Positions 20,885 to 51,117 of a DNA stretch of 64,000 nt are shown here, piece by piece. The translations under genes were made by a program, and so were the position numbers. How positions within the stretch are numbered: position 1 is the stretch's first letter; every line of letters starts with the position of its first letter. Source of the stretch: a bacterium (GTDB lineage Bacteria; Zhuqueibacterota; Zhuqueibacteria; Residuimicrobiales; Krinioviventaceae); the NCBI GenBank assembly GCA_963675755.2, contig CAXXMD010000002.1, positions 288,001 through 352,000 of the forward strand. Direction: 5' to 3'. The notes beneath the pieces are model-generated. The model searched no databases and was not told where the DNA came from. It saw nothing but the letters and a program-made list of their open reading frames with translations.

Positions 20885-22090
20885 ATGGTTGCAGATACAG
20901 AAAAAATTATTACATATTCATTGAAAAATAGTAATGATTCTTCTGATACTTTTTATAAAGAGCTTTCTAGTTTTACTACCAGGTTTGAAATCTATTTTGA
21001 TGAAAAACTGGGTCCTGTGCTTGATAATTATACAAGTTTTATCAATTTCAATCATATCGAGTTATTACGTGATCGTCGTGAATACATGTTTGACTGGCTT
21101 GCTTTTGGTGTATTGTGGCGTCTATATATATCAACTGCGGTGGGAGTAAGTCCAGTTTCAACCCGTTTATTGACGGAGCTTTATTTCCTCAGAAGAAATT
21201 ACCGGAAATTTAAACCTGCTATTGATCGGGTACGTGGTATTTTATCAACCTTGTTGTTGGAAACCAATAATAACAGACATTTTTCCAACATTCCTTTAAA
21301 GATTGCAACTGTTACCAAGTTTTTAAATTATTTAGACGCTACCGGCGAGTTTCGTGAAGAAGTAAAGCGGTTCAAGATTATCTTACAATTTTTTAAACAT
21401 ATTGGTCCTGATAAAACGGAATCCATTATTGAAAAGACGATTGAATTTTCAGGCTGGTTCAAAGATGTTGCCAAACAGGAATTCAAAGACTATACACCTT
21501 TTGTTGAATCTTTTATAGCAAATCAGGCCAAATCACATCGTTGGAAAGAAGATTATTTGTTTTGTAATCGCGGTGAAACAGAATATTATTTGAATATGGT
21601 GGGAAGCGAATTGATGAACCGTGCATTTGTTTCAAATTTTCACCAGACTCAAAGAAAAGCTGTTCTTTTACCTGCATGTATGCGAAAACATGCAAATGAT
21701 GGTCAATGCAAAGCAAAACGAATCAGTTTGGATTTTGTATGTACCGGCTGTGATAAGTCTTGCAAAATTAATCAATATACACAATTGGGAAAAGAACACG
21801 ATTTTGATGTACATATAATCCCGCATTCATCTGATTTTACGGCCTGGCTTGAGAACTTTGCAAAAGACCGGCAGGTAGGTGTTGTTGGTGTAGCATGTTT
21901 GTTAAATTTAATTACCGGTGGTTTGGAACTGAAATCCTTGAACATTCCCGCTCAATGCGTTTTCCTTGATAATTGCGGCTGTACAAATCATTGGCATGAG
22001 ACCGGTGTGGCTACGGATATCAATCCTCTGCAATTGTTAAAAGTTCTTGATGCTCCAAGCAGTATTCGGAAGCATGCGGCAGTTGCGTAA
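20885..22090 (+). CDS. DUF116 domain protein with long N-terminal helical extension
   Basis: LLPACMR, C..CTGC..SC, VGVACL and C..L..CGC motifs in the C-terminal half. Confidence 0.75.
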   Translation: MVADTEKIITYSLKNSNDSSDTFYKELSSFTTRFEIYFDEKLGPVLDNYTSFINFNHIELLRDRREYMFDWLAFGVLWRLYISTAVGVSPVSTRLLTELYFLRRNYRKFKPAIDRVRGILSTLLLETNNNRHFSNIPLKIATVTKFLNYLDATGEFREEVKRFKIILQFFKHIGPDKTESIIEKTIEFSGWFKDVAKQEFKDYTPFVESFIANQAKSHRWKEDYLFCNRGETEYYLNMVGSELMNRAFVSNFHQTQRKAVLLPACMRKHANDGQCKAKRISLDFVCTGCDKSCKINQYTQLGKEHDFDVHIIPHSSDFTAWLENFAKDRQVGVVGVACLLNLITGGLELKSLNIPAQCVFLDNCGCTNHWHETGVATDINPLQLLKVLDAPSSIRKHAAVA

Positions 22091-25638: not shown

Positions 25639-26586
25639 ATGAAAACAAAAAATATCTTGAAATTCGTTGTTTTAGCAATTTGGATTGGAATTGTGGGCTT
25701 GAATGTGCATTTTTCAAATGCAAAGGAAGATAACATGAAATATAACAAACTTACACCGGAAGAAGAACGTGTTATAATTAATAAAGGAACTGAAAGGCCC
25801 TATACAGGACAGTATTACAAGTTTGAAGAAAATGGTACCTATACATGTAAGCGTTGTGACGCACCTTTGTACAAATCTTCAGACAAGTTTGACGCCCATT
25901 GCGGTTGGCCCAGTTTTGATGATGAAATTGAAGGTGCCGTTAAACGCCAAACAGATGCTGACGGACATCGGACTGAAATATTGTGTGCCAATTGTGGAGC
26001 GCATTTGGGGCATGTTTTTACCGGTGAACAGTTTACAATAAAAAATACTCGCCATTGCGTGAATTCCATATCATTGAATTTTGTACCCGCAGGAGAAATG
26101 ATGCAAACACAAAATGCCTATTTTGCAGGTGGATGTTTTTGGGGAACGGAATACTATTTCCAGCAAGCCAAAGGAGTAAAGAGTACGACTGTAGGTTATA
26201 TGGGCGGCGATAAAGATGATCCCACTTATAAACAAGTATGCAGTGGTACTACCGGTCATGCTGAAGTTGTCAAGGTAGAGTTTGATCCGAAACAAACTGA
26301 TTTTGAAACCCTGGCAAAATTGTTTTTCGAGATCCATGATCCTACTCAGGTAGACCGTCAAGGTCCCGATATTGGTGAACAGTATCGTTCTGCTATTTTT
26401 TATACCAGCGAGGATCAGAAAAAGACTTCAGAAAAGTTGATTGATGTTTTAAAGGATAAGGGTTACAAAGTGGCTACAGAGCTGGTAAAAGCTGATGATT
26501 TTTGGGATGCTGAGGACTATCATCAGGATTATTACCAGCACAATGGTAAAGAACCTTATTGTCATTTTTATACCAAGCGGTTTTAA
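25639..26586 (+). CDS. msrAB: Bifunctional methionine sulfoxide reductase MsrB-MsrA with N-terminal signal sequence
   Basis: GTERP, CGWPSF, HLGHVF, RHCVNS (MsrB); AGGCFWG, GHAE, HDPT, AEDYHQDY (MsrA). Confidence 0.95.
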   Translation: MKTKNILKFVVLAIWIGIVGLNVHFSNAKEDNMKYNKLTPEEERVIINKGTERPYTGQYYKFEENGTYTCKRCDAPLYKSSDKFDAHCGWPSFDDEIEGAVKRQTDADGHRTEILCANCGAHLGHVFTGEQFTIKNTRHCVNSISLNFVPAGEMMQTQNAYFAGGCFWGTEYYFQQAKGVKSTTVGYMGGDKDDPTYKQVCSGTTGHAEVVKVEFDPKQTDFETLAKLFFEIHDPTQVDRQGPDIGEQYRSAIFYTSEDQKKTSEKLIDVLKDKGYKVATELVKADDFWDAEDYHQDYYQHNGKEPYCHFYTKRF

Positions 26587-26710: not shown

Positions 26711-27754
26711 TTATTTCAAGAGAGACAGTTTGTTTACAATCTTTTGACTACCTGTATTGATTTCATAAAAGTACATTCCGCTTGACATATGTTGACCATA
26801 CCGATTGGTTCCATTCCAATTTTGACTGTGGATGCCTTCACCAAGGTATCCCATGTCATAATCCATTACCAATTGTCCACGAATGTTATATATTTTCAAA
26901 GTTACATTTGCTGGTTCTTCAAGAGAAAACTGTATTGTTGTTCCTGGATTAGCAGGATTAGGATAATTTGAAGCTTTGAATGTTGAATTACTGGTTTCAA
27001 TGCTACCCTGCTGATTTGCCGGATTAGTACAATTTATATTTTTTTTTCCTAAACCTTTTCCGCGTCCTTGTCCATTGCCGCCACGTTCAATAGCAGATTC
27101 AATAATTTCAGTAAATTCTTCTACTGAAATATATTGTGGTTCATATGTTAAATCCTGTGCAGAATAAAGATTATTAAAGGCACGCATATGGTTTCTTGAA
27201 CCTTTTAAGAGATTGGTATAAACCAGGGTAATATCCTGATTGTCTGTACGTTCCAGTGTTTCATGCAGATCATAGATATCCAGATCTTCAATGGTCAAGC
27301 CAACATACAATGCTTCAATCAGAGATTGACTTCCTGATTCTACTAAGCTGTTATAGATTGCCTGAAGATCTGCATTGCTGAATTTCCCTGTTTCTTCCTG
27401 AAAAGGATCTTCAAGTTCGTATTTATCGATTAAAAGTTTCACCATATCAGTATGCTGCTGCTCACTTTTAGCGATGTTTGTGAAAACAGCAGTTTGCCAT
27501 TTTTCATATAAAACCTGGTAAACGTCATGTGCAAGTTTTTCTTCTTCACGCATATGAAGTAAATCGTTAATTTCGGCTTCTGATAAATCTTCGAAAGGAA
27601 GGTCTGCTAAAATAGCAGAAGCATTAATACCACCGGTATTCCCTTTGTTACCGCGATTACCAAAATTTCCTCTTCCCTGAGCAAAGAGTGTTTGACTTGT
27701 AACGAATGTGACAATCAGCATTGCTGCAATTAATAATGTTTTAGAGTTTTTCAT
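26711..27754 (-). CDS. Secreted DUF2202 ferritin-like protein with C-terminal FlgD-Ig/T9SS-type sorting domain
   Basis: Signal peptide; MREEEKLAHDVY, SEQQH, IEDLDI.DL, GSRNHMRAF; C-terminal NYPNPANP...IYNIRGQLV...WNG...SGMYFY. Confidence 0.85.
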   Translation of the reverse strand: MKNSKTLLIAAMLIVTFVTSQTLFAQGRGNFGNRGNKGNTGGINASAILADLPFEDLSEAEINDLLHMREEEKLAHDVYQVLYEKWQTAVFTNIAKSEQQHTDMVKLLIDKYELEDPFQEETGKFSNADLQAIYNSLVESGSQSLIEALYVGLTIEDLDIYDLHETLERTDNQDITLVYTNLLKGSRNHMRAFNNLYSAQDLTYEPQYISVEEFTEIIESAIERGGNGQGRGKGLGKKNINCTNPANQQGSIETSNSTFKASNYPNPANPGTTIQFSLEEPANVTLKIYNIRGQLVMDYDMGYLGEGIHSQNWNGTNRYGQHMSSGMYFYEINTGSQKIVNKLSLLK

Positions 27755-27791
27755 GATGTTTCTCCTTTTTGTTAGATTTTACCCCTGCTTA

Positions 27792-27807
27792 TGCAAGGGG
27801 TGTGCCA
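27792..27807 (-). promoter_or_regulatory. Sigma54 (-24/-12) promoter for the DUF2202 gene
   Basis: Minus strand TGGCACACCCCTTGCA, exact GG-N10-GC, 38 nt upstream of the ATG. Confidence 0.85.
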
Positions 27808-27874
27808 TTTTATTTTATCTGTTCTAATCTCTTGTTTTTGGATAAGTTACGTAAATAGTCATGTTTTGTAAGAT

Positions 27875-27931
27875 TGAATGATTTCGACGACTCGGGCGAG
27901 AAATCTCGACAATTTGGTCGAAATCTCAAAC
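27875..27931. promoter_or_regulatory. Putative enhancer (bEBP) binding sites shared by divergent sigma54 promoters
   Basis: GATTTCGAC (27880) and GTCGAAATC (27917) are reverse complements, with the palindrome CGAGA-aa-TCTCG between them. GC-rich island in an AT-rich spacer. Confidence 0.55.
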
Positions 27932-27998
27932 TTGAGTATTTTGCTAAACTTACCATAACTATCTAATAAATAGTTACTTACTTCATTGGGTAATGTTT

Positions 27999-28014
27999 TG
28001 GCATAACAATTGAA
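27999..28014 (+). promoter_or_regulatory. Sigma54-like promoter for the Fe-S operon
   Basis: TGGCATAACAATTGAA (GG-N10-GA variant), about 63 nt upstream of the GTG start at 28077. Confidence 0.6.
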
Positions 28015-28076
28015 TAAGCAAAAGAAATTTCTATCAAGAGAGAATTAAAATTATAAAATTTTTTTTAGGAGGGACC

Positions 28077-28460
28077 GTGAAGACAAAATTCATGTTTTCT
28101 GCAATATTTGTTGCTATTGCTCTTTATTTTTCTACTGCGTCTGCGTGTGAAATTGAAGTTTCTGTAAAAGGAGAAAATGCAGCAATTTATAATCCCGGAC
28201 AAGTTGTTGTTTTGCAGGTCAAAGTTTTTCTAACTCACAAGGATTGTCCTGAAGGTATAAAATCAACAAAAATGAATCCATCTGGTATGACCTTGTTGGG
28301 TGCAACCAAATGGAAACAAATCTCAGATCTGGAATACATTCGTTTGGTTCAGGCAAAAATTGATTCTTCTGTAACCGAGGCAATTTTAAATGTTGGCCGC
28401 TCATGTGATAAAGAGGGTGGTATTGGTAAAATATTATTAAAAGTTGGGCAGGGTTCATAA
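28077..28460 (+). CDS. Small exported hypothetical protein with Cys/His motifs
   Basis: AGGAGG RBS; signal peptide ending ASA/C; THKDC and RSCDKEGG motifs; its stop codon overlaps the next ATG. Confidence 0.8.
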   Translation: MKTKFMFSAIFVAIALYFSTASACEIEVSVKGENAAIYNPGQVVVLQVKVFLTHKDCPEGIKSTKMNPSGMTLLGATKWKQISDLEYIRLVQAKIDSSVTEAILNVGRSCDKEGGIGKILLKVGQGS

Positions 28461-29485
28461 TGAGGAATATCATAATTATTGCTTTATTGTTCATTATTGG
28501 AATTTCCTTTTCCCAGGAAACAGATTCTACTGAATTGTCATTTGATGATTTTGGAGCTGAATTTGAATCCATTTCCGATTCTGAATTAGAAGACATTTCA
28601 ACATCTACTCATAGCTGTTCTACCATAGCAGGAATGCCAAAAGGATTGTACTATTCACTTATAGCATTATCAATGACTTTAATAGCTGGTATTTTTGTTA
28701 AATTTAAAGCTCTACGTAAATTCCGTTATCTTTTCCTTCTTTCATCATTGATTGTGTTTGGATTTTGGAATGGTGGCTGCCCTTGCTCAATTTCAAGTTT
28801 TCAAAATGTATTTTTAAAGATTTTTGGTGCCACCGTAAACTGGCACAGTCTTGTATGGTTTTTAGGTTTGATTCCCATTACCTATATATTCGGCAAAGTC
28901 TGGTGTGGTTGGGTTTGCCATTTGGGAGCCTTTCAGGAATTTTTATACAGAATAACAGATGTGAAAATTGTGAAATCTAAAGGTTTCCAAAAATCACTTA
29001 AAATTTTACAATATAGTGTTTTCGTAATTCTTGTGATTCAGTTATTTGTAACCAAAACCAATATTTTTATCCATTATGATCCATTCAAAGTTGCCTTTAA
29101 TATGATTTCTTTTCATACATCCGGCTGGGTATTACTGGGTATTTTACTTGTCAGTTCTTTATTTATCTATCGCCCTTTTTGTAAAGGATTTTGTCCTGTT
29201 GGTTTGGCATTGGGGTGGGTAGGCAAGATACCGGGTGCCCATAAACTCCAGATAGCCGGCAGTTGTACTAGCTGCAAATCCTGCATACGTCATTGTGATA
29301 TGCAGGCAATTTCGGATGATTATAAAGCTGACAGTCATAGCTGTATTTTATGCGGTGATTGTCTTGATTATTGTAAAAAAGAATCTATCAAAGTTACGCA
29401 TAAAGGATTACAGAATGAAAAAAATATTGATCTTGTTGTTCCTGATTTCAAGCTTGAAACCATCGATAGCGAGAGACTGTCATAG
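28460..29485 (+). CDS. NapH/MauN-like membrane 4Fe-4S binding protein
   Basis: Several TMs; GCPC, WCGWVCHLGAFQE, FCKGFCPVG, and two CxxCxxCxxxC motifs at the C-terminus. Confidence 0.88.
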   Translation: MRNIIIIALLFIIGISFSQETDSTELSFDDFGAEFESISDSELEDISTSTHSCSTIAGMPKGLYYSLIALSMTLIAGIFVKFKALRKFRYLFLLSSLIVFGFWNGGCPCSISSFQNVFLKIFGATVNWHSLVWFLGLIPITYIFGKVWCGWVCHLGAFQEFLYRITDVKIVKSKGFQKSLKILQYSVFVILVIQLFVTKTNIFIHYDPFKVAFNMISFHTSGWVLLGILLVSSLFIYRPFCKGFCPVGLALGWVGKIPGAHKLQIAGSCTSCKSCIRHCDMQAISDDYKADSHSCILCGDCLDYCKKESIKVTHKGLQNEKNIDLVVPDFKLETIDSERLS

Positions 29486-30716
29486 CGATATTGGGGTTCA
29501 TTTAAAACCCATACTACCCAATTTACAATGGGCTGTTGAAACATCTGCATCAATTGGACAGATGTCTGGCAGTGGTATTGATAGAAGACTAAATACTGAA
29601 TCTTTATTTTGGGCATTGGATTATAATCTAAAAAAGTTTGAGATTTATCTTGAAGGTGGCGCAAAATACTGGCAAAAATCTGATGATGGCCCCGGTTTAG
29701 GTGCAATAGTAAGTGGCTGGGAAAGTTTACCCAAACCTGAACAACGTAATTTTGGTATGCGCGAAGCTTATACAAGATTGACATTATTTAATAACAGAAT
29801 GACCATGGGGTTGCAGTCAATGACCCTGGGTACAACCATGCTTCTTGATGAACGTGTATTGGGTATATCAAATAGCTATGAAAAAGGACATTACAAGTTT
29901 GAGCTCAAAGGTGGTACTGTATCTACTGACTTTGCACGTATGAATGATTTTTGTGGAACGCGTCATGTTTACAGGTTGTTACGTGGTGGCCGGTTTGATA
30001 TGGTAGCCACAGAACCCTGGAAGACCAATTTTTACGCTGCATCGATAACCTGGAATGCCGAAGAGCCTGTAGAAGTCGTTTCAGGAGATCAGAGTGAATT
30101 TGAAATGGAATCTTTTTCGGATTTTTCATTTGAATCGTTCGACGAAGAAGAGACCCATATCGTTCAAAATGCCGGATTGTTATTTTATCAAGAATTTGGT
30201 TCAGGTTTTTTTGATTACAAATATTATGGTGGTGCTTTTTCTGACATCCTTTTACCATTTGATGTTGATCTGCATTTAGAAATGATATATCAATATATCT
30301 GGCATGAACAAGCTGCTGCTTTTAAAGGACAATTTAGTAAAAATTTCAATATTTTTCCTGCATACCCATTTTCAACAAGTCTATCATATTACGGAGTTTA
30401 TGAGGTGAGTCAGGATGCACGGTTTTTTCCGGCATTCAGTAACCTTTATCTGGGTGAAGTCAGCCGGTTGGATGCATTGCACATGCCATTATTGGTTGTT
30501 GATGTTAAACAATACTTGCCTGGGAAGCTGGAACCTGCACTCCGTTTACAATATGTAAACCAGATTCAATTTGATCATAATACCGAGTTGGATTTTCAAT
30601 TATCAGCCAAATTGTTTAAAGGATTAAGAACAATCATCATGTTGAGTAAAATCGATTCTGATTTACTTTCAGAATCTGTAATGCTCAATAAACTTGAATG
30701 TCGTTGGTCATTCTAA
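29415..30716 (+). CDS. Predicted outer-membrane beta-barrel protein of unknown function
   Basis: Signal peptide; alternating aromatic/hydrophobic strands; MREAY..L, MGLQ..TLG..LLDER (alginate-export-like); C-terminal Phe (CRWSF). Confidence 0.65.
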   Translation: MKKILILLFLISSLKPSIARDCHSDIGVHLKPILPNLQWAVETSASIGQMSGSGIDRRLNTESLFWALDYNLKKFEIYLEGGAKYWQKSDDGPGLGAIVSGWESLPKPEQRNFGMREAYTRLTLFNNRMTMGLQSMTLGTTMLLDERVLGISNSYEKGHYKFELKGGTVSTDFARMNDFCGTRHVYRLLRGGRFDMVATEPWKTNFYAASITWNAEEPVEVVSGDQSEFEMESFSDFSFESFDEEETHIVQNAGLLFYQEFGSGFFDYKYYGGAFSDILLPFDVDLHLEMIYQYIWHEQAAAFKGQFSKNFNIFPAYPFSTSLSYYGVYEVSQDARFFPAFSNLYLGEVSRLDALHMPLLVVDVKQYLPGKLEPALRLQYVNQIQFDHNTELDFQLSAKLFKGLRTIIMLSKIDSDLLSESVMLNKLECRWSF

Positions 30717-30729
30717 TCAGGAGAACAGA

Positions 30730-31551
30730 ATGAATTCGGATCGAAGAATTTTTATAAAGAATTTAGGTGTACTTGCTGCAGGCTCAGCGGCAGGAATACT
30801 AACTGCTTGTACCAAACATGGCACGAATCCCTTAGAATTTGTCGATATATGTCAAAATACGTGTACCGGTTGTGGTGATTGTGTTGATTCCTGTCAGGAT
30901 AATGCAATTTTACTTGAGCAAAAATCAACATATGTCATAGATATAGATGATTGTACTGAATGTGGACAGTGTGTTCCTCACTGCAAGCTTGAAGCTATCC
31001 ATATCTCTTCAAGTCAATATATCCTGGATTCTGAAGAATGTATTGGATGTGGTTTGTGTATTGATGTGTGTGATCAGGAAGCACAGGCTATTGTTTGGGA
31101 GAGAGAAGAGTACCTGGTACGTGGTAAATGCAGAAACACTCATTGTAATTTTGAATGTGCTGCTGCTTGTCCTGAAAATGCAATAACCATTGTTAATAAT
31201 ACTGCCGTAATTGATATGGAAAAATGTACGCGTTGTGGTTTGTGTATCGCTCCATGTCCAGCAGAAGCAATTAATCCTGCGCATGTTGAAATGGTGGTTG
31301 ATCAATGTACCCGCTGTGGTAAATGTTTTGATGTCTGTGAATTTGATGCAATTACCAAAGTTGAACCTGAAGGCTATTCAGATCCCCATATTGATGCTGA
31401 GGTTTGTAATGCCTGCTCAGAATGTAAGGACTATTGTCCCGAAAATGCTATCTATGGTAAATTGTTTAAAGCACAAATTGATAACGAAAATTGTACTGCT
31501 TGTGGTGAATGTTTTGAAAAATGTACGTATGATGCAATACGGCATGTTTAA
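30730..31551 (+). CDS. Tat-exported lipoprotein polyferredoxin (up to 8 [4Fe-4S])
   Basis: DRRIFIK Tat motif, LTAC lipobox, seven CxxCxxCxxxC motifs plus one CxxxxCxxxCxxxCP variant. Confidence 0.85.
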   Translation: MNSDRRIFIKNLGVLAAGSAAGILTACTKHGTNPLEFVDICQNTCTGCGDCVDSCQDNAILLEQKSTYVIDIDDCTECGQCVPHCKLEAIHISSSQYILDSEECIGCGLCIDVCDQEAQAIVWEREEYLVRGKCRNTHCNFECAAACPENAITIVNNTAVIDMEKCTRCGLCIAPCPAEAINPAHVEMVVDQCTRCGKCFDVCEFDAITKVEPEGYSDPHIDAEVCNACSECKDYCPENAIYGKLFKAQIDNENCTACGECFEKCTYDAIRHV

Positions 31552-31552
31552 A

Positions 31553-32491
31553 CTAAACATCTCTGACGCAGCGGAATCCCATATTGCCTGATGAACTGTC
31601 AGGAGTATTTGAACTTCGTGCTGCAACACGATAGCGATTGCAATATGATTTATGACACAGATATGATCCACCGCGCATAACCCTGTTGGTACCCTCTGTT
31701 GGGCCAACAGGATTTACTCTGGTATTATTTATATGAAAAGTAGGGTGGAACCAATCCGCGCACCATTCCCATACATTCCCGCAAACATTATATAATCCAA
31801 AATCATTCAGAGTAAATGATTTTGCCGGAGCTGTACCTATAAATCCATCATCGGCTGTGTTTTGTGTGGGAAATATACCCTGCCATACATTACACATGTG
31901 TCTGCCATTGGGCTCAAGTTCATTGCCCCAGGGAAAAATGGTTTGTTCTCTGCCTCCACGTGCGGCATATTCCCATTCGGCTTCAGTTGGTAAACGTTTA
32001 CCAGCCCACTTGCAATAGGCATTTGCATCATTCCATGATACATGTACTACCGGATGGTCCATTCTGTTACTTATGGTAGAAAGCGGACCTTCAGGCCTTC
32101 TCCAGTTGGCTCCTTTAACTGCAAACCACCAGGGAGTTTGTGCTGCCTGTTGACTGTTTTTTGCAATTACGGGAGGAAGAAACAAGTGAAAAACATATGT
32201 CCAACCAAATGATTCTGCTTCGGTTTTGTAACTTGTTTCTTTAACAAATTCAGCAAATTGTTGATTGGTTACGGTTGTTTTATCGATCAAAAAGGGAGAT
32301 ACCGTAACTTGTCGTACCGGCCCTTCACCATCTGCGGGAAATCCTTCCTTGTCATCAGTTCCCATGAGAAACGTACCACCTGGCAGCTCTATCATATCAT
32401 CATATTTAGGAATATGTGTTGAAACATCAATGTTTATTATTTTCCTGGTTGATTCACTATTCCTGGACGGGCCGCAACATTGCTTGCTCAT
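31553..32491 (-). CDS. Formylglycine-generating enzyme (sulfatase-modifying factor)
   Basis: HPVVHVSWNDA, RLPTEAEWEYAARG, GNVWEW, and RGGSYLCHKSYCNRYRVAAR with both catalytic Cys. Confidence 0.92.
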   Translation of the reverse strand: MSKQCCGPSRNSESTRKIINIDVSTHIPKYDDMIELPGGTFLMGTDDKEGFPADGEGPVRQVTVSPFLIDKTTVTNQQFAEFVKETSYKTEAESFGWTYVFHLFLPPVIAKNSQQAAQTPWWFAVKGANWRRPEGPLSTISNRMDHPVVHVSWNDANAYCKWAGKRLPTEAEWEYAARGGREQTIFPWGNELEPNGRHMCNVWQGIFPTQNTADDGFIGTAPAKSFTLNDFGLYNVCGNVWEWCADWFHPTFHINNTRVNPVGPTEGTNRVMRGGSYLCHKSYCNRYRVAARSSNTPDSSSGNMGFRCVRDV

Positions 32492-35209: not shown

Positions 35210-35324
35210 ATGCTGTAAAACCCTGCATTTTAATATTTCGTGACATATTCCCGTTGTAAATATTGTTTATTATCAGTAAATGAAACAAATTGTTTCTTTA
35301 TTGTGCACATATTTGGAGATGTTT

Positions 35325-36644
35325 ATGGATTTACCCAATTGTATTTCCAGTGAGATATTGGATTCTATTGGTGAAGGTATATATACAATTGATAAAAAGT
35401 TCAAAATCAGCTTTATGAACAAAGCAGCTGAAGAGATTCTTGGTGTTAAACGGGAAAAAGTCATTGGTAAATTTTGCAAACATGTTTTCAGTTCAGAAGA
35501 GTGTTTAGACAAATGTCCCATTAGCAAGGTGCTCGATTCAGGTAAGAATGTATATGATCATATAACTAAATTTTATCATCAGAATGGCATTTCAAAAAAT
35601 GTCAGGGTAAATGCTTCATTGCTCCATAATTCTGATAATGAAATAATTGGCGGGGTCGTTTCTTTTCGTGATCTTTCAAATGATGAAAGTTCAGTTTTGA
35701 AATCCAAAACCATGCAGGATTTTTACGGAATTGTGGGTCAATCAAAACCCATGCTGGAATTGTATGACCTGGTTACCGAGATTGGCGGTACTTGTGCTTC
35801 CGTATTAATACAAGGAGAGTCCGGCACAGGTAAAGAAATGTTTGCTAATGCAATACAGGCTTCCAGTCAGCGTAACAAAATGCCTTTTATCAAGGTGAAT
35901 TGTTCGGTTTTTCCTCCTCAATTGCTTGCCAGTGAATTATTTGGCCATGTTAAGGGTGCGTTTACAGATGCAATTCAGAATCGTAAAGGCCGTTTCGAGA
36001 TAGCAGACAAGGGCACATTGTTTTTAGATGAAGTCGCTGAAATGCCGTTGTCAATGCAATTGCAGCTATTACGTGTTCTACATGAAGGGACTTTTGAAAG
36101 AGTTGGTGAATCTTTGACACGCTCAGTGGATGTACGAGTTATTGCCGCTACAAATAAAGAGTTGGACACTGCGATTAATGACGGATCCTTTAGAGAAGAT
36201 TTGTTTTACCGTTTAAATGTGATTCCAATGCACATTCCTGCACTTCGCGAAAGAAGGGCAGATATACCGCATCTGGTCAATTATTTTGTTGAAAAGTTTT
36301 CATCAAACTATCACAAAGAAATTCAAGAAGTAGATGATGAAGCTATGGATTATTTAACTGCCTATAACTGGCCGGGAAATGTTCGCGAACTGGAAAATGC
36401 TATTGAATATTCATTTATACGAACACATAATGATGATGTAATAACAGCTAAAAAGCTACCTGCGAATATCAGACAAAAAAATGGCAAGTTTTTTACAACA
36501 GGGGATAACAAGTTTTCTGAACGTGACGAGATCTTGGAAACATTAAAAAAACATCATTGGAATAAAAGTAAAGCCGCAGATGAATTACGTATGGGACGCA
36601 CAACGTTGTGGCGCAAAATGAAATCCATGGGAATTGAAACATAA
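35325..36644 (+). CDS. PAS-domain sigma54 enhancer-binding transcriptional activator
   Basis: PAS domain with C-x8-C-x3-CP; GESGTGKE, SELFGHVKGAFTDA (GAFTGA variant), LFLDE, WPGNVREL; Fis-type HTH. Confidence 0.95.
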   Translation: MDLPNCISSEILDSIGEGIYTIDKKFKISFMNKAAEEILGVKREKVIGKFCKHVFSSEECLDKCPISKVLDSGKNVYDHITKFYHQNGISKNVRVNASLLHNSDNEIIGGVVSFRDLSNDESSVLKSKTMQDFYGIVGQSKPMLELYDLVTEIGGTCASVLIQGESGTGKEMFANAIQASSQRNKMPFIKVNCSVFPPQLLASELFGHVKGAFTDAIQNRKGRFEIADKGTLFLDEVAEMPLSMQLQLLRVLHEGTFERVGESLTRSVDVRVIAATNKELDTAINDGSFREDLFYRLNVIPMHIPALRERRADIPHLVNYFVEKFSSNYHKEIQEVDDEAMDYLTAYNWPGNVRELENAIEYSFIRTHNDDVITAKKLPANIRQKNGKFFTTGDNKFSERDEILETLKKHHWNKSKAADELRMGRTTLWRKMKSMGIET

Positions 36645-36730
36645 GATGAAACATTGAAACAATTTGTTCTGCTATGTAAATAAACTATTAATAATATTTT
36701 AAGTTTGTTTTTTCTGTTTTTATTTTTATA

Positions 36731-36749
36731 TTGAAACACACTGTTTCAA
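36731..36749. promoter_or_regulatory. Putative upstream activator site
   Basis: Perfect inverted repeat TTGAAACA-cac-TGTTTCAA; further TGAAACA half-sites at about 36647-36661. Confidence 0.55.
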
Positions 36750-36790: not shown

Positions 36791-36805
36791 TGGCAGGATC
36801 TTTGC
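36791..36805 (+). promoter_or_regulatory. Sigma54 promoter for the TPR gene
   Basis: TGGCAGGATCTTTGC (GG-N10-GC), 30 nt upstream of the ATG at 36835 and directly downstream of a bEBP gene. Confidence 0.75.
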
Positions 36806-36834
36806 CTGATTTACCCCAAAAAGATGGAATAATC

Positions 36835-37287
36835 ATGTACGAAATGCTTGGTAATCAGTATTTTATGTCCCGTCAGTATAGCCGTGCTACCATGGCTTTA
36901 GAGCGGGCATTGCAGACTGATCCTAAAAATTTAGGGATTCAGCGCAAGCTGATTATTTGTTATTGTCAAATTGGTAAAGTTGAAGACGCTTTGCACATGT
37001 TTTTGTCGCTAATAAAAGCTGATATTGACTTTATTATGTCTGCTGATCCGATATTGGATGATTGCCCTTGTCCTGATTTGATTTACAATATGGAGGCACA
37101 AATATCAGATGAGCGCCAGTCTTTGGATTTTAATTTGATTATTGGCATGTTGTGGTTGTTTTGTGATCTTGAACGGTCTTTCGAGTATTTTCACAAGGCA
37201 CAAGTTATGGATCCCAATAATACCAATATTAAATCGATCATGCTTTTTCTCTCAAATCGTCTGGAAAAAGAGAAAACCCGTCATTAA
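36835..37287 (+). CDS. Tetratricopeptide-repeat protein with DDCPCP motif
   Basis: LGNQYF..QY..A..LERAL..DP TPR pattern and a second TPR at the C-terminus. Confidence 0.75.
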   Translation: MYEMLGNQYFMSRQYSRATMALERALQTDPKNLGIQRKLIICYCQIGKVEDALHMFLSLIKADIDFIMSADPILDDCPCPDLIYNMEAQISDERQSLDFNLIIGMLWLFCDLERSFEYFHKAQVMDPNNTNIKSIMLFLSNRLEKEKTRH

Positions 37288-37402
37288 TCTCTATTTATTT
37301 GCAATTTTCCCTCATTACTTGATAACTGCTTGTTTGTAGTAAAATACAAATGTAACCCCTTTTTTTATTGGCCTTGTCATTATTTATATGTATTTTATTT
37401 AC

Positions 37403-37765
37403 ATGAAAAAAATGATGACATACATCTTGATATCTATTTATTTTAGTTTTTTCCCAATTTACCCCTATATTCATTTTCATTTAAATTGCGATGTTGATAA
37501 AGTATGTCATCAAGTTGATTTCAGCGAATGTGAACATTTTCATCATTCTGAACATCAACCGCACAAACATTTCAAGGGTGACTGGCAGCATACCATAACC
37601 AAAGATGATCCTGGTAAAATCCAGTCGATAAATCATGTCCATGAATACAGTTTTTACTATTCTGTAATTTCCGGATCAAGATTACCCGAGTTTTCAAATC
37701 ATTTCAAAGATTCCATTCTTTACAGTCCCGATATTTCGCGGGCACCCCCAGTATTACTCGTATAA
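37403..37765 (+). CDS. His-rich exported leader protein ending in RAPP (DUF2946/CzcI-like, putative arrest peptide)
   Basis: Hydrophobic N-terminus, 13 His and 3 Cys, C-terminal SRAPPVLLV; lies directly upstream of the efflux operon. Confidence 0.7.
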   Translation: MKKMMTYILISIYFSFFPIYPYIHFHLNCDVDKVCHQVDFSECEHFHHSEHQPHKHFKGDWQHTITKDDPGKIQSINHVHEYSFYYSVISGSRLPEFSNHFKDSILYSPDISRAPPVLLV

Positions 37766-37832
37766 TTTACACCAGAAATTTTCAAAATTATTTAAATGAA
37801 TTTCAATCTCTTTCATTAATGGAGAATTGTAT

Positions 37833-39053
37833 ATGAACCGCATTGCGAGTATTCTACTCGTCGCAAGTGCATTGGTTATGGCAAGAGATAATACTATTCA
37901 ACTCTCGTTCACCGAGTTGGATTCTTTATTATCAAACAGTCCTGTGTACCATTCACTTGACTATGAGTTTAGTGCCAAAATGTATGATGTTAAACATCAT
38001 TTAAACTGGCAAAATCCCGAATTTGAATTTGAACGAGAAGCGTTAAGCGATAATGGTGATAAAGAAAATGAAACTGTCTTCCTGCTTGGTAAAGATTTTA
38101 TGCTTCCCTGGGCAGGGTATTATCATCGTTCAGCCCAAAATGCAGAACTTGAAGCAATTGGATTCTCATTAAAAGATAATTATCTATTCCAGTTGAATAC
38201 ATTCAAAAGCCAATATATAGCTCTTTCTTTGTTGCAGCAAAAATCCAGACGATATATTGAACTGGATAGTTTAATGAACAAGGCTTTGAATATTGCTCAG
38301 GAACGTTTTAACCAAGGAACTTTATCCGGTGTTGAAAATCGTCTAGTGCAACTGAGCAAGTACAATGTACAGCGGGACCGTTTTGTATTGCAACAGGAAT
38401 ACAAAGAGCTGCTTGCTCAATTTAAAACGGGTCTTGGGTTTGGTGTTGATGATTCCCTGGAGTTTAGTACGGATATTGCTTTTTTGCCTTTTGGAATTAA
38501 ACCGCTTACAGTCTATACACAGGAACTGGAAAAGCATCCTATCTTGACATCATTTGCAGTTGCTGAAAATGCTAAAAAACAGCAAGTCCGTTTTGAGAAA
38601 TTGGCACCAGTTTCTTCTGTACATCTATCAGGCGGCTATAAACAACTGAATGATACTATGGATGGATACGTCGCCGGGATTTCCATTCCTCTTCCCATAT
38701 TAAACCGTAATAAAACAGGTATTCAGAAAACAATAGCCGAGTTGAATCAATTACAAATTGAAAATCAAATGACAACCAGAAAGTTGAATTTACGCCTGGA
38801 GCAGCTTGTTGCTGCTTTAAAAATTCAGCAAAAACAAATGAAAACGTTTTCTGAATCTTTTCAATCAGCAGCACAAATTATTGATGATATTGTGTATACA
38901 TTTTATGAAGGCTCTGCTGATTTTGGAGATATTTTGGACACATACCAGGTCTATACTGAAAGCATGAGTACCTATTATGATCAACTCTTGTTGTATTATA
39001 ATTACCTGTTGGAATTGGAATACCTGACTCAAGAGAAAATTATTGAATTTTAG
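37833..39053 (+). CDS. TolC/CzcC family outer-membrane efflux protein
   Basis: Signal peptide; NPEF, GISIPLPILNRN motif; helical coiled regions; operon context. Confidence 0.85.
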   Translation: MNRIASILLVASALVMARDNTIQLSFTELDSLLSNSPVYHSLDYEFSAKMYDVKHHLNWQNPEFEFEREALSDNGDKENETVFLLGKDFMLPWAGYYHRSAQNAELEAIGFSLKDNYLFQLNTFKSQYIALSLLQQKSRRYIELDSLMNKALNIAQERFNQGTLSGVENRLVQLSKYNVQRDRFVLQQEYKELLAQFKTGLGFGVDDSLEFSTDIAFLPFGIKPLTVYTQELEKHPILTSFAVAENAKKQQVRFEKLAPVSSVHLSGGYKQLNDTMDGYVAGISIPLPILNRNKTGIQKTIAELNQLQIENQMTTRKLNLRLEQLVAALKIQQKQMKTFSESFQSAAQIIDDIVYTFYEGSADFGDILDTYQVYTESMSTYYDQLLLYYNYLLELEYLTQEKIIEF

Positions 39054-39062
39054 AGGGATATT

Positions 39063-40622
39063 ATGAAATATATAAAATTATCGAGTTTATTATTGGTTGC
39101 TTTAATCGCATGTAGTAAACCGGTTATAGATGAACATGCAGGACATGATCATGGTGAAGAAGCTGTTTCTGTCACAACCTGGACGGATGCTTTCGAGTTT
39201 TTTGCCGAGTTTTCACCCAATGAGGACCATTCTCAGAATGCATTGGTACACATAACTCAATTAAAAGATTTTAAACCCCTTGTTGATGATCATGTATCTA
39301 TCATTATTAAATCCGAGAGTGATCAGGTGCTTTTAAATAAAGAACTTGAGCTGGTCCGTCCCGGTATATATAGTAATGCAATTGAATTACCTGAATCTGA
39401 TGTACATTTTCTTATTGATCTGGGTATAGGCAATGAAACGTTTGATTTAGGTCACGTCGAGTTTGTTGATCATGAGCATAAAGAACATGTAGAAACTGAT
39501 AACGACGAACATGATCATGAACATGAAGCAGAAGAGAGTGAACATGATCATGATTCACCTATAACAGGAGAAATGGTACCATTTTTAAAAGAACAACAAT
39601 GGGTTGCTGATTTTAATGTTCAGAAAAGTAAAATGGGGGATGTTCGATCTGTTGTATATGCAATCGGTCAGGTCATACCACATCAACAGGGTTTGTCAGA
39701 AATTGTCTCACCCGTTGAAGGATACTTGAATGTGAATCATAATCAAAATATGGTTGTGGTGGGAGCACGTGTCAAGAAAGGACAGATACTGGCAACACTT
39801 TGTCCGCCAATTGGTCGTTCAAATACCTGGACGGAACGTTACCTTTCTTATCAACGAGCTGAAAAGAATTATGAACGCGCTCAGGAATTGAAAAAACGGC
39901 AGGCTATTTCAAATACAGAATTTGAACAGATTGAACAGGATTATCTTGTAGAAAAAGCCGGATTTGAAACCCTTTTAAATGCATACAATATTACTCCGGA
40001 TATGAGTAACAAGGAATGTATGCATTTTTATGTCAAAGCACCTATTGATGGAATTGTTTCGGAATTGGATATTAAACCCGGACAAAATATAAGCGCTGGC
40101 GATCAAATGATGACCCTTGTCGATCCGGATGTGGTTTGGTTACATGCGGATTTGTATGAAAAAGAATATTACAGATTAGGCAAACCTGATGGAGCCACTC
40201 TTGAACTACCCGGACGAAATGAAAAACTCCATCTCAACAAGTCTGAATTCAAAATGATCAATAAAGGTGAAATTGTTGAGCAGGAAACACGAACAATTCC
40301 GGTTCTGTTTCAACTTGACAATAAAGAAGGTTTGTTGAAAATTGGTCAAACACTTCAAATGAACATCTATTCTACCAGCGATGATAAAGCAGTGATTGTA
40401 CCTGTATCTGCAATTCTTGATGAAGATGTACAGAAATTTATTTTTGTTCAACACACTGGAGAATCTTTTGAAAAACGTCCTGTGAAAACCGGACCCGTCT
40501 ATAAAGATGATATTGCCATCCTTGACGGCTTGAATCCCGATGAACGTATTGTGACGCAAGGAACCTATTTGTTAAAACTGGCAACAGTTACAACAGCTGT
40601 AGGTCACGCACACAGTCATTGA
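39063..40622 (+). CDS. RND efflux periplasmic adaptor (CzcB/CusB-like), His-rich lipoprotein
   Basis: Lipobox IAC; HAGHDH and HDHEHE tracts; SPVEG, VKKGQ.L, APIDG, TRT, GL..ERIV; C-terminal HAHSH. Confidence 0.9.
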   Translation: MKYIKLSSLLLVALIACSKPVIDEHAGHDHGEEAVSVTTWTDAFEFFAEFSPNEDHSQNALVHITQLKDFKPLVDDHVSIIIKSESDQVLLNKELELVRPGIYSNAIELPESDVHFLIDLGIGNETFDLGHVEFVDHEHKEHVETDNDEHDHEHEAEESEHDHDSPITGEMVPFLKEQQWVADFNVQKSKMGDVRSVVYAIGQVIPHQQGLSEIVSPVEGYLNVNHNQNMVVVGARVKKGQILATLCPPIGRSNTWTERYLSYQRAEKNYERAQELKKRQAISNTEFEQIEQDYLVEKAGFETLLNAYNITPDMSNKECMHFYVKAPIDGIVSELDIKPGQNISAGDQMMTLVDPDVVWLHADLYEKEYYRLGKPDGATLELPGRNEKLHLNKSEFKMINKGEIVEQETRTIPVLFQLDNKEGLLKIGQTLQMNIYSTSDDKAVIVPVSAILDEDVQKFIFVQHTGESFEKRPVKTGPVYKDDIAILDGLNPDERIVTQGTYLLKLATVTTAVGHAHSH

Positions 40623-40644
40623 TCATTCATTGAGGAGAATAGAT

Positions 40645-43600
40645 ATGTTAGATTTTATAATGCAAAATAGTCTGCGAAACCGGTTGATTGTTGTTCTGGC
40701 TGGTATTGCAGTATTGGTAATGGGAGTACTAATATCCGGCAAACTGCCGGTTGATGTTTTTCCGGATTTAACCGCCCCTACAGTAACCGTATTGACCGAG
40801 GCCCATGGTATGGCGCCTGAAGAAGTAGAGATGCTGGTTACATTTCCCATCGAAACCGCTGTGAATGGAGCGACCGGGGTAAGGCGGGTAAGGTCCACTT
40901 CAATACAGGGCTTTTCCACTGTCTGGGTTGAATTCGAGTGGGGCATGGATATTTATCGTGCCCGTCAAATCGTAAATGAAAAGATGCAGAATCTACAGGG
41001 TGCCTTGCCCGATGGTGTAGATTCACCCGTACTTGCGCCTATAACTTCGCTCATGGGCGAGATTATGACTGTTGGTTTAACCAGCGATTCATTGTCTCTG
41101 ATGGAGTTGCGGTCATTGTCTGATTTTCAAATCCGCCGTAGATTGCTTGCCGTGCCCGGAGTTGCACAGGTCAAGGTCTATGGAGGAGAAGTCAAGCAGT
41201 ATCAGATTCTTGTGAATCCCAACATGTTACGTAAATATGATCTTACTTTGCATCAGGTGCATGAAGCTGCTCAAAGCGCCAACCTGAATGCTGCGGGTGG
41301 ATTTTACGTACAGTCCGGTCAGGAATATCTCATTCGGGGTATGGGACGAATCCATGACATTCAGGAACTGGAGAGGGCAGTGATCAGCACGCATAACAAT
41401 ATTCCGGTGTTAATGCGTGATATCGGAAGGATTGTAATTGGTCCGGCAACCAAGATTGGAGAATCTTCTGTCAATGGAGATCATGGAGTTTTGATTGTGA
41501 TCAGTAAGCAGCCGGACGCAAATACATTGAAACTGAATGAGCGTTTAAATACGGTTATTGCCAATATTGCGGATACCCTGCCAAAAGGAACAAAATTGCA
41601 TCCCAACCTGTTCACACAGGCGGGATTCATTACCCGAGCTGTGGAAAATGTTATAGATGCCCTACGTGATGGTGCTTTACTGGTTATCATCATTCTGGCT
41701 TTATTTTTGGCAAATGTGAGAACAACAATCATTTCAACATTGGCAATCCCTTTGTCACTCATGTTTTCTGTTTTGATCTTGTATTTAGCCAATCTTTCCA
41801 TAAATACCATGACATTGGGAGGTATGGCAATTGCCATTGGTGTATTGGTAGATGATGCTATCATATATGTTGAAAATGTGTTCCGACGATTGCGGCAAAA
41901 TCGGGATAAACCATCTAATGAGCAGCAAGACGAAGATGAGGTGATATTAAAAGCATCATCAGAAGTTCGGGCACCTATTTCAATAGCAACATTTATTGTG
42001 ATAATTGTGTTTTTACCCCTGTTCTTTCTGAGTGGCATTGAGGGAAGAATGCTCATCCCACTGGGTATTGCCTACATTGTTTCTATTTTTGCATCGTTGA
42101 TTGTTGCAATAACTGTAACTCCCGCACTCAGTTCATATCTGTTAAAACGGAACAAGAGCTCAAAAAATAGAGAGAGCTGGATCGTTCTATTTTTGCAGTC
42201 TTTGTATCGACCGGTTTTAAACTGGTGTTTAGCGCATAAACGGTGGGTGGTAAGTCTGGCAACTATAATTTTGGTTGTATCATTGGCGATATTGCCTTTT
42301 ATTGGTCGCTCTTTTTTACCTGAATTTAACGAGGGCACACTTAATATCAGTCTGGCAACTTTGCCGGGCACATCTCTGGATGAATCAGACAAGATTGGTC
42401 AGATTGCAGAGAATTTGTTATTGGAGCATCCTGCAGTTGTTACGGTTAGCAGACGTACCGGACGAACAGAAATGGATGAGCACTCGTTAGGCTCACACGC
42501 GCATGAACTGGAAGTTGAGATTGATTTTAGCCATATCACACAAGACCAGTTGTTAAAAGACGTGAGAGAAAAGTTGAGCTTGTTACCGGGATGTGTATTT
42601 GTGATAGGGCAACCTATTGGCCACAGAATTGATCATATGTTATCCGGTACACGCGCGAATATTGCAATCAAGATATTTGGATCAGATCTTTACAACCTTC
42701 GACAAATCGGTCTCAAAGTTCAACAAGAGATTGCGGACATACCGGGAGTAACAGATCTGTCAATGGACCAGCAAATCGACATCCCGCAGTTACGTATTCG
42801 GGCCAATCGTGAGCGTATGGCATTGTACGGCGTTACCATGGGTGATGTGGATGAGATGATAGATACAGCATTTCTGGGAACTGCTGTTTCCCAGGTATAT
42901 GAAGGCCAAAATCAGTATGATCTTGTTGTGCGCTATGACGAGTCATTTCGCAACAATATTGATGCAATTCGTAACAGCCTGATCGATACACCTATTGGCG
43001 CCAAAATTCCACTGGATATGATAATGGATATTCAGGTCGACCGTGGACCCAATTACATCAGTCGCGAAAATGCCCAGCGCAAGATCGTTGTGCAAGCCAA
43101 TGTGGCTGAAAGAGATATTGGCAGTGTGATCAGTGACATCCAATCCCGAATTGCAGGATCAGTTGATCTGCCCGTTGGCTATTATGTAGAGTATGGCGGC
43201 CAGTTTGAGAGTGAACAACAAGCCACACGTGTTATTTCTTTACTGAGCTTGTTATCACTGTTGCTTATCTTTTTGGCATTGTATCTGGAATTTAAAAACC
43301 TGAGAATACCATTTCTCATCATGTCTACATTACCTTTTGCTCTCATTGGCGGAATTATTGCCATTCGGGTTACGGGTGGAGTAATGACCATTGCATCTAT
43401 TGTGGGATTTATCACACTGTTTGGTATTGCCATTCGTAACGGCATTATCATGGTTTCTCATTATATACATTTGCGTGAAGAGGGTGTAGAGATATCTCAG
43501 GCTGTAATTCAGGGATCTCTTGATCGCCTGAGTCCCGTTCTTATGACCGCACTTACTACAGGATTAGCATTGACTCCGCTTGCCTTTGCCGGTAACAAAC

Positions 43601-43719: not shown

Positions 43720-43727
43720 ATTCATTG

Positions 43728-43755
43728 TAAAGGCCGGATATCATTCCGGCCTTTT
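43728..43755. terminator. Bidirectional terminator between convergent genes
   Basis: AAAGGCCGGA-tatcat-TCCGGCCTTT. Confidence 0.75.
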
Positions 43756-43756
43756 A

Positions 43757-45328: not shown

Positions 45329-45479
45329 GTTAATCCCCTGATTATACATTGTGATTATGAAATATATTACAATATCAATGAACAATGCCAGTCTTTTTTC
45401 TTGATATTCTTGAAATCAATCACTATAGTTCAATATCCTGTTGTTGAACAATTCAATCATATATACTGGGAGGGTAAAC

Positions 45480-46622: not shown

Positions 46623-46640
46623 TAAAAATATAAAATTTAA

Positions 46641-46678
46641 TGCCCGATTTATTTTTTTAATGAATCGGGCTTTTTTTT
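46641..46678 (+). terminator. Terminator after the sialidase-like gene
   Basis: GCCCGATT...AATCGGGC followed by a T-tract. Confidence 0.7.
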
Positions 46679-46844
46679 GCATAATTATTTTCTTTTGTTG
46701 ATAAATATATATAATATTACTATAGTACTATTCATCTCCCAATTTCTTTAGGGGGGAGATAAAGCTGTGTTATTGAAAGTAAATTCAATATTAATAATTC
46801 AAAACGAATTACCAGAGATGAACATTTTAACGAAAGGGGTTGTT

Positions 46845-47447: not shown

Positions 47448-47518
47448 AGTTTTACTGCATTTCCGCGTTAATTAATTTGTTATACTTTTTGGGTTCGGAA
47501 AACAGGTTTGGAGAAGGA

Positions 47519-48685: not shown

Positions 48686-48688
48686 TAT

Positions 48689-48727
48689 AAAAAAAGCCCG
48701 GTGTTAATGATGACCGGGCTTTTTTTA
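48689..48727. terminator. Bidirectional terminator
   Basis: AAAAAAAGCCCGGT...ACCGGGCTTTTTTT between convergent genes. Confidence 0.8.
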
Positions 48728-48728
48728 A

Positions 48729-49700: not shown

Positions 49701-49720
49701 GTTGTCACCTCTGTTTTATA

Positions 49721-51079: not shown

Positions 51080-51117
51080 TTTCCAACCTCGTATATATAC
51101 AATTGTATTAGTATCAA

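Follow-up and report, generated by a model that had tools for sequence, protein, structure and literature searches.

What task would link a membrane protein of the NapH type to an outer-membrane barrel within a single operon, when none of the proteins checked there has a CxxCH heme motif? The question is raised by a 64,000-nucleotide stretch of contig CAXXMD010000002.1 from a bacterium of the Zhuqueibacterota (hereafter the window, with positions counted from its first nucleotide), in which four genes follow one another on the forward strand. In the table of open reading frames (ORFs) these encode a small exported immunoglobulin (Ig)-like protein (28077–28460, 127 aa), a NapH-like Fer4_5 membrane Fe-S protein (28460–29485, 341 aa), a predicted 18-strand porin-like outer-membrane barrel (29415–30716, 433 aa; ORF table and model) and a lipoprotein polyferredoxin with a twin-arginine translocation (Tat) signal and eight [4Fe-4S] motifs (30730–31551, 273 aa). 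The answer that we tentatively favour is a NapH-type transmembrane electron module whose target in the periplasm is some small solute, either a thiophilic metal or a metalloid.

The cassette and its conservation

The initial annotation had described a tightly coupled operon, and the ORF table gave the four genes at the same coordinates. The TAA stop codon of the small gene and the ATG of the NapH-like gene have 1 nt in common, the NapH-like and barrel genes overlap by 71 nt, and the barrel gene is followed, after a gap of 13 nt, by the ferredoxin ATG at 30730, with an AGGAG Shine-Dalgarno sequence 7 nt 5' of it. Divergent from the operon lies the gene for a DUF2202 protein with a sorting domain of the type IX secretion system (T9SS; 26711–27754, reverse strand, 347 aa). 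The absence of CxxCH multiheme cytochromes and of catalytic molybdo- or flavoenzymes, both read from the sequence at the outset, was borne out: there are no CxxCH motifs in any of the nine proteins checked, and scans of the window neighbours against Pfam and NCBIfam turned up no molybdo- or flavoenzyme.

The four proteins were compared across 21 loci other than the window (L numbers below; G numbers denote genomes). All four genes are found together in 12 of the 21 (L009, L010, L011, L027, L029, L030, L031, L032, L033, L035, L037 and L038), or in 10 distinct full-cassette loci, the figures for L030–L032 being identical. The order small, NapH-like, barrel, ferredoxin is kept in 11 of these 12; G080 (L027) departs from it with small, ferredoxin, barrel, NapH-like, which suggests that selection acts on the gene set rather than on one arrangement. 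Two loci with DNA on both sides contain the small and NapH-like genes only (L025 and L026, genomes G026 and G030), and in a further three an intact pair is accompanied by a fragmentary barrel and ferredoxin (L012 in G032, L013 in G024 and L014 in G010); in L014 the barrel fragment has an internal stop and there is no ferredoxin match. A contig end lies too close in three of the 21 loci (L028, L034, L036), and L039 retains a small-protein fragment only. The cassette is conserved, with the small and NapH-like pair as its core, and the objection that the genes might not co-occur in other genomes has failed.

The hosts belong to candidate division KSB1 and to Bacteroidota-type contigs, among which L035, L037 and L038 are 74–86% identical to one another. 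The barrel protein was matched in 7 of 41 related genomes. Across the phylum the small-protein profile matched 10 of 167 genomes (8 of 105 if only genomes with a completeness of 90% or more are counted), and it also matched 12 metagenome loci out of 108 pattern matches. A search of genome contigs with the barrel returned the same-genus record only, and no description of the cassette was found in a full-text literature search.

Features of the four proteins

The small protein carries a Cys3His tetrad (C24, H54, C57 and C110), which is intact in 118 of 145 aligned representatives of its family; nine of the 145 rows are without C24, H54 and C110 jointly, with C57 kept. Two further residues are conserved, R108 (139/145) and W79 (141/145). 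The signal is of the Sec type, with a small-x-Ala site immediately before the near-invariant Cys and an RR-like motif in 8 of the 145 sequences; the mature protein would therefore begin with Cys, and any cofactor would be acquired outside the cytoplasm. A lipoprotein assignment was rejected: the residue at −2 relative to the Cys varies (K, N, Y, W, F), and the site follows a small-x-Ala pattern. The mature protein is basic, with a pI of 8.5.

The AlphaFold2 (AF2) model of the small protein (pLDDT 82.6) is an all-beta Ig-like sandwich, for which Foldseek and VIA-align returned generic matches only (Ig-like, pilin, cohesin) and no specific relative. A relation to the cupredoxin domain of PmoB/AmoB was considered and set aside, the match being too weak for use (TM 0.52–0.53, E 2e-3 to 6e-3). 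The sequence gave no Pfam match even at E ≤ 10, no NCBIfam match and no match in a PDB profile search, and tblastn against plasmids was likewise negative; a search of the ESM Atlas matched Bacteroidota clusters only. At E ≤ 0.001 the family profile collects 280 cluster representatives from a set of 1.84 billion. In two proteins, P0277 (458 aa) and P0279 (394 aa), the small domain is fused N-terminally to the Fer4_5 membrane domain. Separately, P0156 (3555 aa) contains 43 stretches matching a 35-residue part of the small-protein profile (positions 24–58) and may be a repeat adhesin made of a related strand pair.

The membrane protein had been annotated as a NapH/MauN-like inner-membrane Fe-S protein, in agreement with its match to PF12801 (Fer4_5) over two stretches (53.7 bits against a cut-off of 22). 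Its scores fall below every curated cut-off: 66.9 against 213.05 for TIGR02163 (NapH/MauN, the best NCBIfam match), 57.3 against 234 for NF007013, 53.7 against 1000 for the NosR model NF046105, with no FMN_bind match, and 28 against 316.7 for the CcoG/FixG model TIGR02745. NapH/MauN proteins are defined by two membrane-proximal CX3CP motifs. Among the 120 best homologues of the cassette protein, the first membrane-proximal motif is CX3CH in 118 and the second is CX3CP in all 120, and the eight cluster cysteines of the two C-terminal CxxCxxCxxxC [4Fe-4S] motifs are each kept in 117–120. A further motif, G-[GA]-C-P-C (CPC), is present in 118 of the 120, and hydropathy and charge would put it where a transmembrane helix meets the periplasm. 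Past the N-terminal signal these homologues have an acidic segment, with a median length of 67 aa, a median D/E content of 24% and 5% K/R. This genome encodes four other Fer4_5 proteins; three are without a CxC pair and the fourth has CVC. Judged by these motifs, the NapH-like protein belongs to a distinct CPC-motif subfamily of Fer4_5 proteins. Homologues of 47–52% identity are named from the cultured Bacteroidota Draconibacterium and Mangrovibacterium, and further close ones from Prolixibacteraceae, Gemmatimonadota, Kapabacteria and Deltaproteobacteria.

The product of 29415–30716, for which a barrel had been predicted, was modelled as an 18-strand beta-barrel with an aromatic C-terminal residue (AF2, mean pLDDT 75.6, pTM 0.74, 18 long strands), and Foldseek matched the model to AlgE, Occ/OprD, MOMP and chitoporin (E 1.2e-10 to 1e-8, TM 0.45–0.57). 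The best of these, AlgE, OprD/Occ and MOMP (E about 1e-10, TM 0.52–0.57), are 18-strand porins. The condition set at the outset as a refutation, namely that this protein should turn out not to be a barrel, was thus not borne out by the model. The protein has no Pfam or NCBIfam match, and by sequence it resembles no solved structure. When Pfam was searched with the 14 members of the family up to E ≤ 10, nothing but three unrelated single matches appeared; MtrB_PioB is not matched. As modelled, the barrel is AlgE/OprD-like by fold and not by sequence family, and represents an undescribed family of 14 clusters in a collection of 5.8 billion sequences. Two cysteines, C22 just past the signal and C180, are invariant even at 20–28% identity. 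C180 sits in a conserved Arg/His-rich loop, modelled with low confidence, in which a histidine is also invariant across the 14-sequence alignment. A separate loop (residues 215–249) is Phe-rich, with 13 acidic and no basic residues, is more repetitive still in L033, and is similar in composition to the acidic tail of the NapH-like protein.

A test for docking in the barrel had also been suggested. Complex prediction of the barrel with the mature small protein gave a score of 0.41 (runs of 0.33, 0.50 and 0.41), against 0.01 for the best of three controls, with a contact agreement of at least 73% and a partner pLDDT of at least 75 across runs. The mark used for such predictions is reached by 58 of 80 solved complexes and by 2 of 110 mismatched pairs, and a score of 0.60 or less by just 7 of the 80 solved complexes together with both passing mismatches; custom alignments were used here, which makes these calibration counts approximate. 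Docking of the small protein on the barrel thus has weak support.

The ferredoxin was read as the initial annotation had read it, with twin arginines, a lipobox Cys and eight four-Cys motifs (Fer4 match 132.8 bits). R5, R6, C27 of the lipobox and all 32 cluster cysteines are invariant in eight of eight aligned orthologues, the Tat/lipobox signal having been read by eye. In three Bacteroidota-type loci the corresponding gene encodes a short two-cluster ferredoxin of 97–99 aa (L035, 11023–11316; L037, 11116–11412; L038, 11110–11409), whose N-terminus resembles a Sec/lipoprotein signal without twin arginines, which is odd for an exported Fe-S protein.

Promoters and genomic neighbourhood

Divergent sigma54 control had been proposed, and sigma54-type promoter motifs were indeed found in both directions. 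The DUF2202 gene is preceded by the −24/−12 sequence TGGCACACCCCTTGC (27793–27807, reverse strand), which ends 38 nt upstream of its ATG (27754) and is the sole match to TGGCAC-N5-TTGC with no mismatches in the window. On the operon side a variant with two mismatches, TGGCATAACAATTGA (27999–28013, forward strand), starts 78 nt 5' of the small-gene start codon. At up to two mismatches the window contains 50 matches to the consensus, with 51 expected by chance, and weight was therefore given only to the perfect site and to conserved sites.

A scan of the 400 nt 5' of the first cassette gene in 16 loci, in which at least 8 of the 10 specified bases had to match, showed that the operon-side site recurs. 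Matches of the type TGGCA[CT]-N5-TTG[AC/T] start 48–89 nt 5' of the first gene in 7 of the 16 (window, L009, L011, L014, L025, L027 and L030), of which the window and L009 are of the same genus and not independent; the TTGA/TTGT form of the −12 element is common to most of these nearby sites. Three loci (L010, L012, L013) have distant matches, 311–393 nt upstream, and six have none within the 400 nt (L026, L028 and the Bacteroidota-type L033, L035, L037 and L038). These data are consistent with a putative sigma54-type control of both the operon and the DUF2202 gene.

Between the two promoters lies an inverted repeat (27880–27925; arms 27880–27901 and 27904–27925, 73% complementary), a candidate activator-binding site whose ends form a perfect 9-nt repeat, GATTTCGAC / GTCGAAATC, these being the sole exact copies in the window. 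The repeat GTCGAAATC is absent from the other sigma54-type promoter regions of the window, and for this reason one shared regulon is not claimed. An enhancer-binding protein (EBP) with PAS, sigma54-interaction and HTH domains (35280–36644, forward strand; PF00158 223.4 bits, PAS, HTH_8) is, by proximity only, a candidate regulator. Its gene is 3.7 kb from the operon and is retained near the cassette in the same-genus genome G001, and L030 has an EBP homologue upstream. Searches with the EBP in the remaining loci gave no match.

The DUF2202 gene product, annotated from the outset as ferritin-like with a sorting domain, scored above the cut-offs of PF09968 (193.6 against 22), PF18962 (40.7 against 27) and TIGR04183 (51 against 23). 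As a neighbour of the cassette the gene is confined to the window and G001, and it is not in the conserved core. A second, independent DUF2202 association is found in L039 (6345–8246), where a gene for a DUF2202 lipoprotein is separated from an 80-aa small-protein remnant by about 1 kb, with one ORF for a TetR-type regulator in between. A DUF2202 ferritin-like protein is listed, in the part of the source consulted, among the genes conserved in ferrosome clusters (bioRxiv 10.1101/2020.01.10.902569). At 125 nt from the DUF2202 gene, in an arrangement kept in G001, is a gene for an MsrB-MsrA fusion (SelR and PMSR domains; 25639–26586), which is probably exported, since it begins with a signal-like segment.

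Past the operon the window holds an FGE-sulfatase-domain gene, a TonB-dependent receptor, the EBP gene, a third promoter and pump genes. The FGE-sulfatase gene (31553–32491, reverse strand, 304.7 bits) is oriented convergently to the operon, its end lying 1 nt away from the stop codon of the polyferredoxin gene. The product has no obvious signal peptide, and its NCBIfam matches to GldK, SenA and EgtB are all under the cut-offs. The third sigma54-type promoter, TGGCAGGATCTTTGC (36791–36805, one mismatch), precedes five genes (36791–43719 with the promoter). They encode a TPR protein, a 125-aa protein that is His-rich and unmatched in Pfam, an outer-membrane factor, an adaptor (membrane-fusion protein) that is likewise His-rich, and a resistance-nodulation-division (RND) pump, the last being of the CusA/CzcA type (TIGR00914, 843.8 bits against a cut-off of 701.45). 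Three sigma54-type promoters thus flank one EBP gene. A palindrome, TTGAAACA-CAC-TGTTTCAA, is situated near the third promoter at about 36729–36747.

Outside the window, selected neighbours of L010, L025, L026, L027, L033, L035 and L039 were scanned. No catalytic or known terminal reductase stands beside the cassette in the window or among these scanned neighbours, and no nap or mau catalytic genes were found in the same set. The initial annotation had raised the possibility that a known terminal reductase is a constant part of homologous operons; for the loci whose selected neighbours were scanned, this does not hold. In G080 an ArsR-family/DUF2087 gene is divergent from the cassette, and four Bacteroidota-type loci (L033, L035, L037, L038) carry an extra small-protein paralogue next to an ArsP_1 permease, which in L035 has a Cys-Ser-Cys pair. 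Another L035 gene (12735–13541) encodes a possible surface-attached flavoprotein, a DUF2271 protein that combines a flavinylation-type TGAS motif with a T9SS sorting domain; L037 and L038 have an ORF of similar appearance at this position, the scanned one being that of L035. According to the sections of PMC8238504 drawn on here, DUF2271 is flavinylated at [S/T]GA[S/T] and its clusters are tied to iron reduction and assimilation.

Two features elsewhere in the window are recorded for completeness. The region 20885–22090 encodes a protein of 401 aa whose C-terminal part matches DUF116 (82.6 bits), while its long N-terminal half has no match, and positions 40001–52000 have a G+C content of 0.39–0.45 compared with 0.31–0.39 elsewhere, with a negative GC skew around 48–52 kb.

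Possible functions of the cassette

Several known systems resemble the cassette in part. In NapGH as in the cassette, a Fer4_5 protein that has Cys motifs close to the membrane and a pair of [4Fe-4S] motifs at its C-terminus is partnered by a Tat polyferredoxin; however, the cassette protein lies far below the NapH cut-offs, has CX3CH as its first motif and has in addition a putatively periplasm-facing CPC and an acidic N-terminal tail, while its ferredoxin is a lipoprotein with eight clusters, no nap genes are adjacent and two novel partners are present. FtrABCD/P19 also combines a periplasmic beta-sandwich metal-binding protein with a Fer4_5 membrane polyferredoxin, but FTR1 permease, cupredoxin and P19 gave no Pfam match in the cassette or the scanned neighbours, and a dedicated porin and a periplasmic ferredoxin are found instead. 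The CcoG/FixG cupric reductase with FixH offers a Fer4_5 polyferredoxin acting on a metal ion and an Ig-like periplasmic element; the cassette differs in its TIGR02745 score, given above, and in having no cbb3 oxidase or P-type ATPase context. MtrCAB, too, brings together in one gene set a quinol-linked protein of the inner membrane, a multi-centre electron carrier in the periplasm and an outer-membrane barrel, whereas the cassette has neither CxxCH nor an MtrB_PioB match, its barrel is 18-stranded and porin-like, and the length of its carrier is not conserved.

Most NapH-like proteins carry an extracytosolic FMN (flavin mononucleotide)-binding domain at the N-terminus, as stated in the portion of PMC8238504 used here. 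The systems treated there, such as NosR and PceC, are the closest published framework for the cassette and are comparable to it in that a modular PF12801 protein feeds extracytosolic redox partners and bears an N-terminal extracytosolic domain; the cassette has in place of the FMN-binding domain a separate or fused Cys3His Ig-like protein, and is without an ApbE or FMN_bind gene. As its sampling is set out in that portion, the survey would not have collected the cassette, because it was anchored on flavinylation genes.

We propose that the cassette encodes a self-contained, putatively sigma54-regulated envelope redox module. The NapH-like protein would move electrons between a membrane or cytoplasmic pool and the periplasmic face, in a direction that we infer, over a route comprising the cytoplasmic pair of [4Fe-4S] clusters, CX3CH and CX3CP, and the periplasmic CPC pair. 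The small Ig-like protein would be its obligate periplasmic partner, with a Cys3His site that may bind the substrate or a metal cofactor. In the four-gene form, the Tat ferredoxin lipoprotein would add periplasmic electron storage or transfer, as NapG does for NapH, and the 18-strand porin would pass a small solute over the outer membrane, to be reduced or handed over in the periplasm. A thiophilic metal, a metalloid, a chalcogen species or iron is suggested as substrate by the Cys/His ligands, by the CxC pair that each of the two membrane partners has and by neighbours concerned with metal homeostasis. Support for a metal solute comes from the putatively periplasm-facing CPC, the Cys3His partner, the dedicated pore and those neighbours, among them the CusA/CzcA pump genes of the window, the ArsR-family gene of G080, the ArsP_1 permeases of the Bacteroidota-type loci and the iron-linked DUF2202 and DUF2271. 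The acidic, Phe-rich segments of the NapH-like tail and of the barrel loop may offer a hint of docking sites for the basic small protein.

The initial annotation had offered two readings, an Fe-S wire analogous to Mtr and a reductive metal-uptake module. The latter carries over as metal handling, which fits the data better than the wire, with a substrate class that we infer. In the wire, a heme-free trans-envelope conduit would run from quinol through the NapH-like protein, the eight-cluster lipoprotein and the barrel to surface or extracellular acceptors, as in MtrCAB. The eight-cluster Tat lipoprotein is co-inherited with the barrel, the two being jointly present or jointly fragmentary with L014 as the sole exception; possible T9SS redox proteins adjoin in two phyla (DUF2202 in the window, DUF2271 with TGAS in L035); and the two invariant cysteines and invariant loop histidine of the barrel, together with the weakly supported docking of the small protein (0.41 against 0.01), would suit such a role. 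Even so, we regard the conduit as rather unlikely. An MtrB-type sheath around MtrA has about 26 strands, and an 18-strand porin-like barrel would be too narrow for a ferredoxin domain, so that an Mtr-type sheath was dropped. The ferredoxin is down to two clusters, at 97 aa, in L035, L037 and L038, two genomes have the small and NapH-like pair only, and no surface protein bearing a cofactor has been conserved alongside the cassette. Fairly unlikely, too, is an elaborated path free of both heme and flavin, in which quinol electrons would pass via the CPC NapH-like protein, the eight-cluster lipoprotein and a Cys3His protein docked on the barrel to T9SS surface proteins (a diiron DUF2202, a flavinylatable DUF2271) or to minerals.

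A CPC pair at the periplasmic helix end and three cysteines in the partner protein would also be expected of a thiol-disulfide or protein-repair relay that reduces envelope proteins in the manner of DsbD/CcdA, and the probably exported MsrA-MsrB fusion beside the DUF2202 gene in the window and G001 points the same way, as does a DsbD homologue directly upstream of the cassette in L035 (the ORF there in L037 and L038 looks similar, the scan having covered that of L035). We judge this relay unlikely: it needs neither a dedicated porin nor a polyferredoxin, no thioredoxin fold was found in the cassette proteins, and the MsrAB link is confined to one genus and the DsbD link to one set of close contigs (74–86% identity). 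An ordinary NapGH-type quinol dehydrogenase serving a known terminal reductase elsewhere in the genome would account for the layout of a membrane Fer4_5 protein with a Tat polyferredoxin and for TIGR02163 as best NCBIfam match, and NapH-like proteins are modular partners of many oxidoreductases (PMC8238504, in the portion used). It is nevertheless quite improbable, and an ordinary Nap module was dropped, given the TIGR02163 and NF007013 scores well under their cut-offs (66.9 against 213.05 and 57.3 against 234), the lack of nap genes nearby and of an adjacent reductase in the loci whose neighbours were scanned, and the presence of a novel porin and a novel Cys3His protein, sometimes fused, that are foreign to Nap systems. 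Finally, the Cys3His protein and CPC might serve as a scaffold or insertase in cofactor maturation outside the cytoplasm, for the ferredoxin or another envelope protein. Three Cys and one His are a ligand set familiar from cluster scaffolds, the small protein is Sec-exported, and the signal of the 97-aa ferredoxin in three loci has no twin arginines; but this idea is entirely inferential, the two-gene form is without a ferredoxin client, and the KSB1 polyferredoxins would need no such help, because eight of eight orthologues have canonical twin-arginine signals. We consider it very improbable.

Several points weigh against a metal-solute module itself. The link to metals draws on few contexts, because the neighbours outside the four genes differ between loci, and two of the metal contexts, the window and G001, come from the same genus. 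Invariant Arg108 and Lys112 of the small protein, like the conserved Arg/His-rich loop of the barrel, would suit an anion rather than a metal cation, which keeps an anionic species among the candidates. In the Cys3His site a structural disulfide could be combined with something else, and the two invariant cysteines of the barrel may form a mere disulfide. The membrane topology of the NapH-like protein would follow from hydropathy, the periplasmic side of barrel loop 215–249 from strand parity counted from the C-terminus, and the docking of barrel and small protein is weakly supported. The signal of the short ferredoxins would also fit poorly with a simple Tat export of a folded Fe-S protein.

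NapH-like proteins mediate a widespread and poorly understood export of electrons from the cytoplasm, in which the membrane-crossing route is still open. To these the cassette adds a NapH-like subfamily with a putatively periplasm-facing Cys-Pro-Cys pair, together with two undescribed families, the Ig-like partner with its Cys3His tetrad (some 280 representatives in 1.84 billion) and the porin (14 clusters in 5.8 billion sequences). The cassette genes are tightly coupled, are found in at least two phyla and have sigma54-type motifs upstream in KSB1 loci. Should the cassette reach the cell surface, porin-cytochrome conduits would have in it their first counterpart based on Fe-S clusters. With a metal, metalloid or chalcogen as substrate, the cassette would represent a new envelope route of detoxification or acquisition in sediment bacteria.

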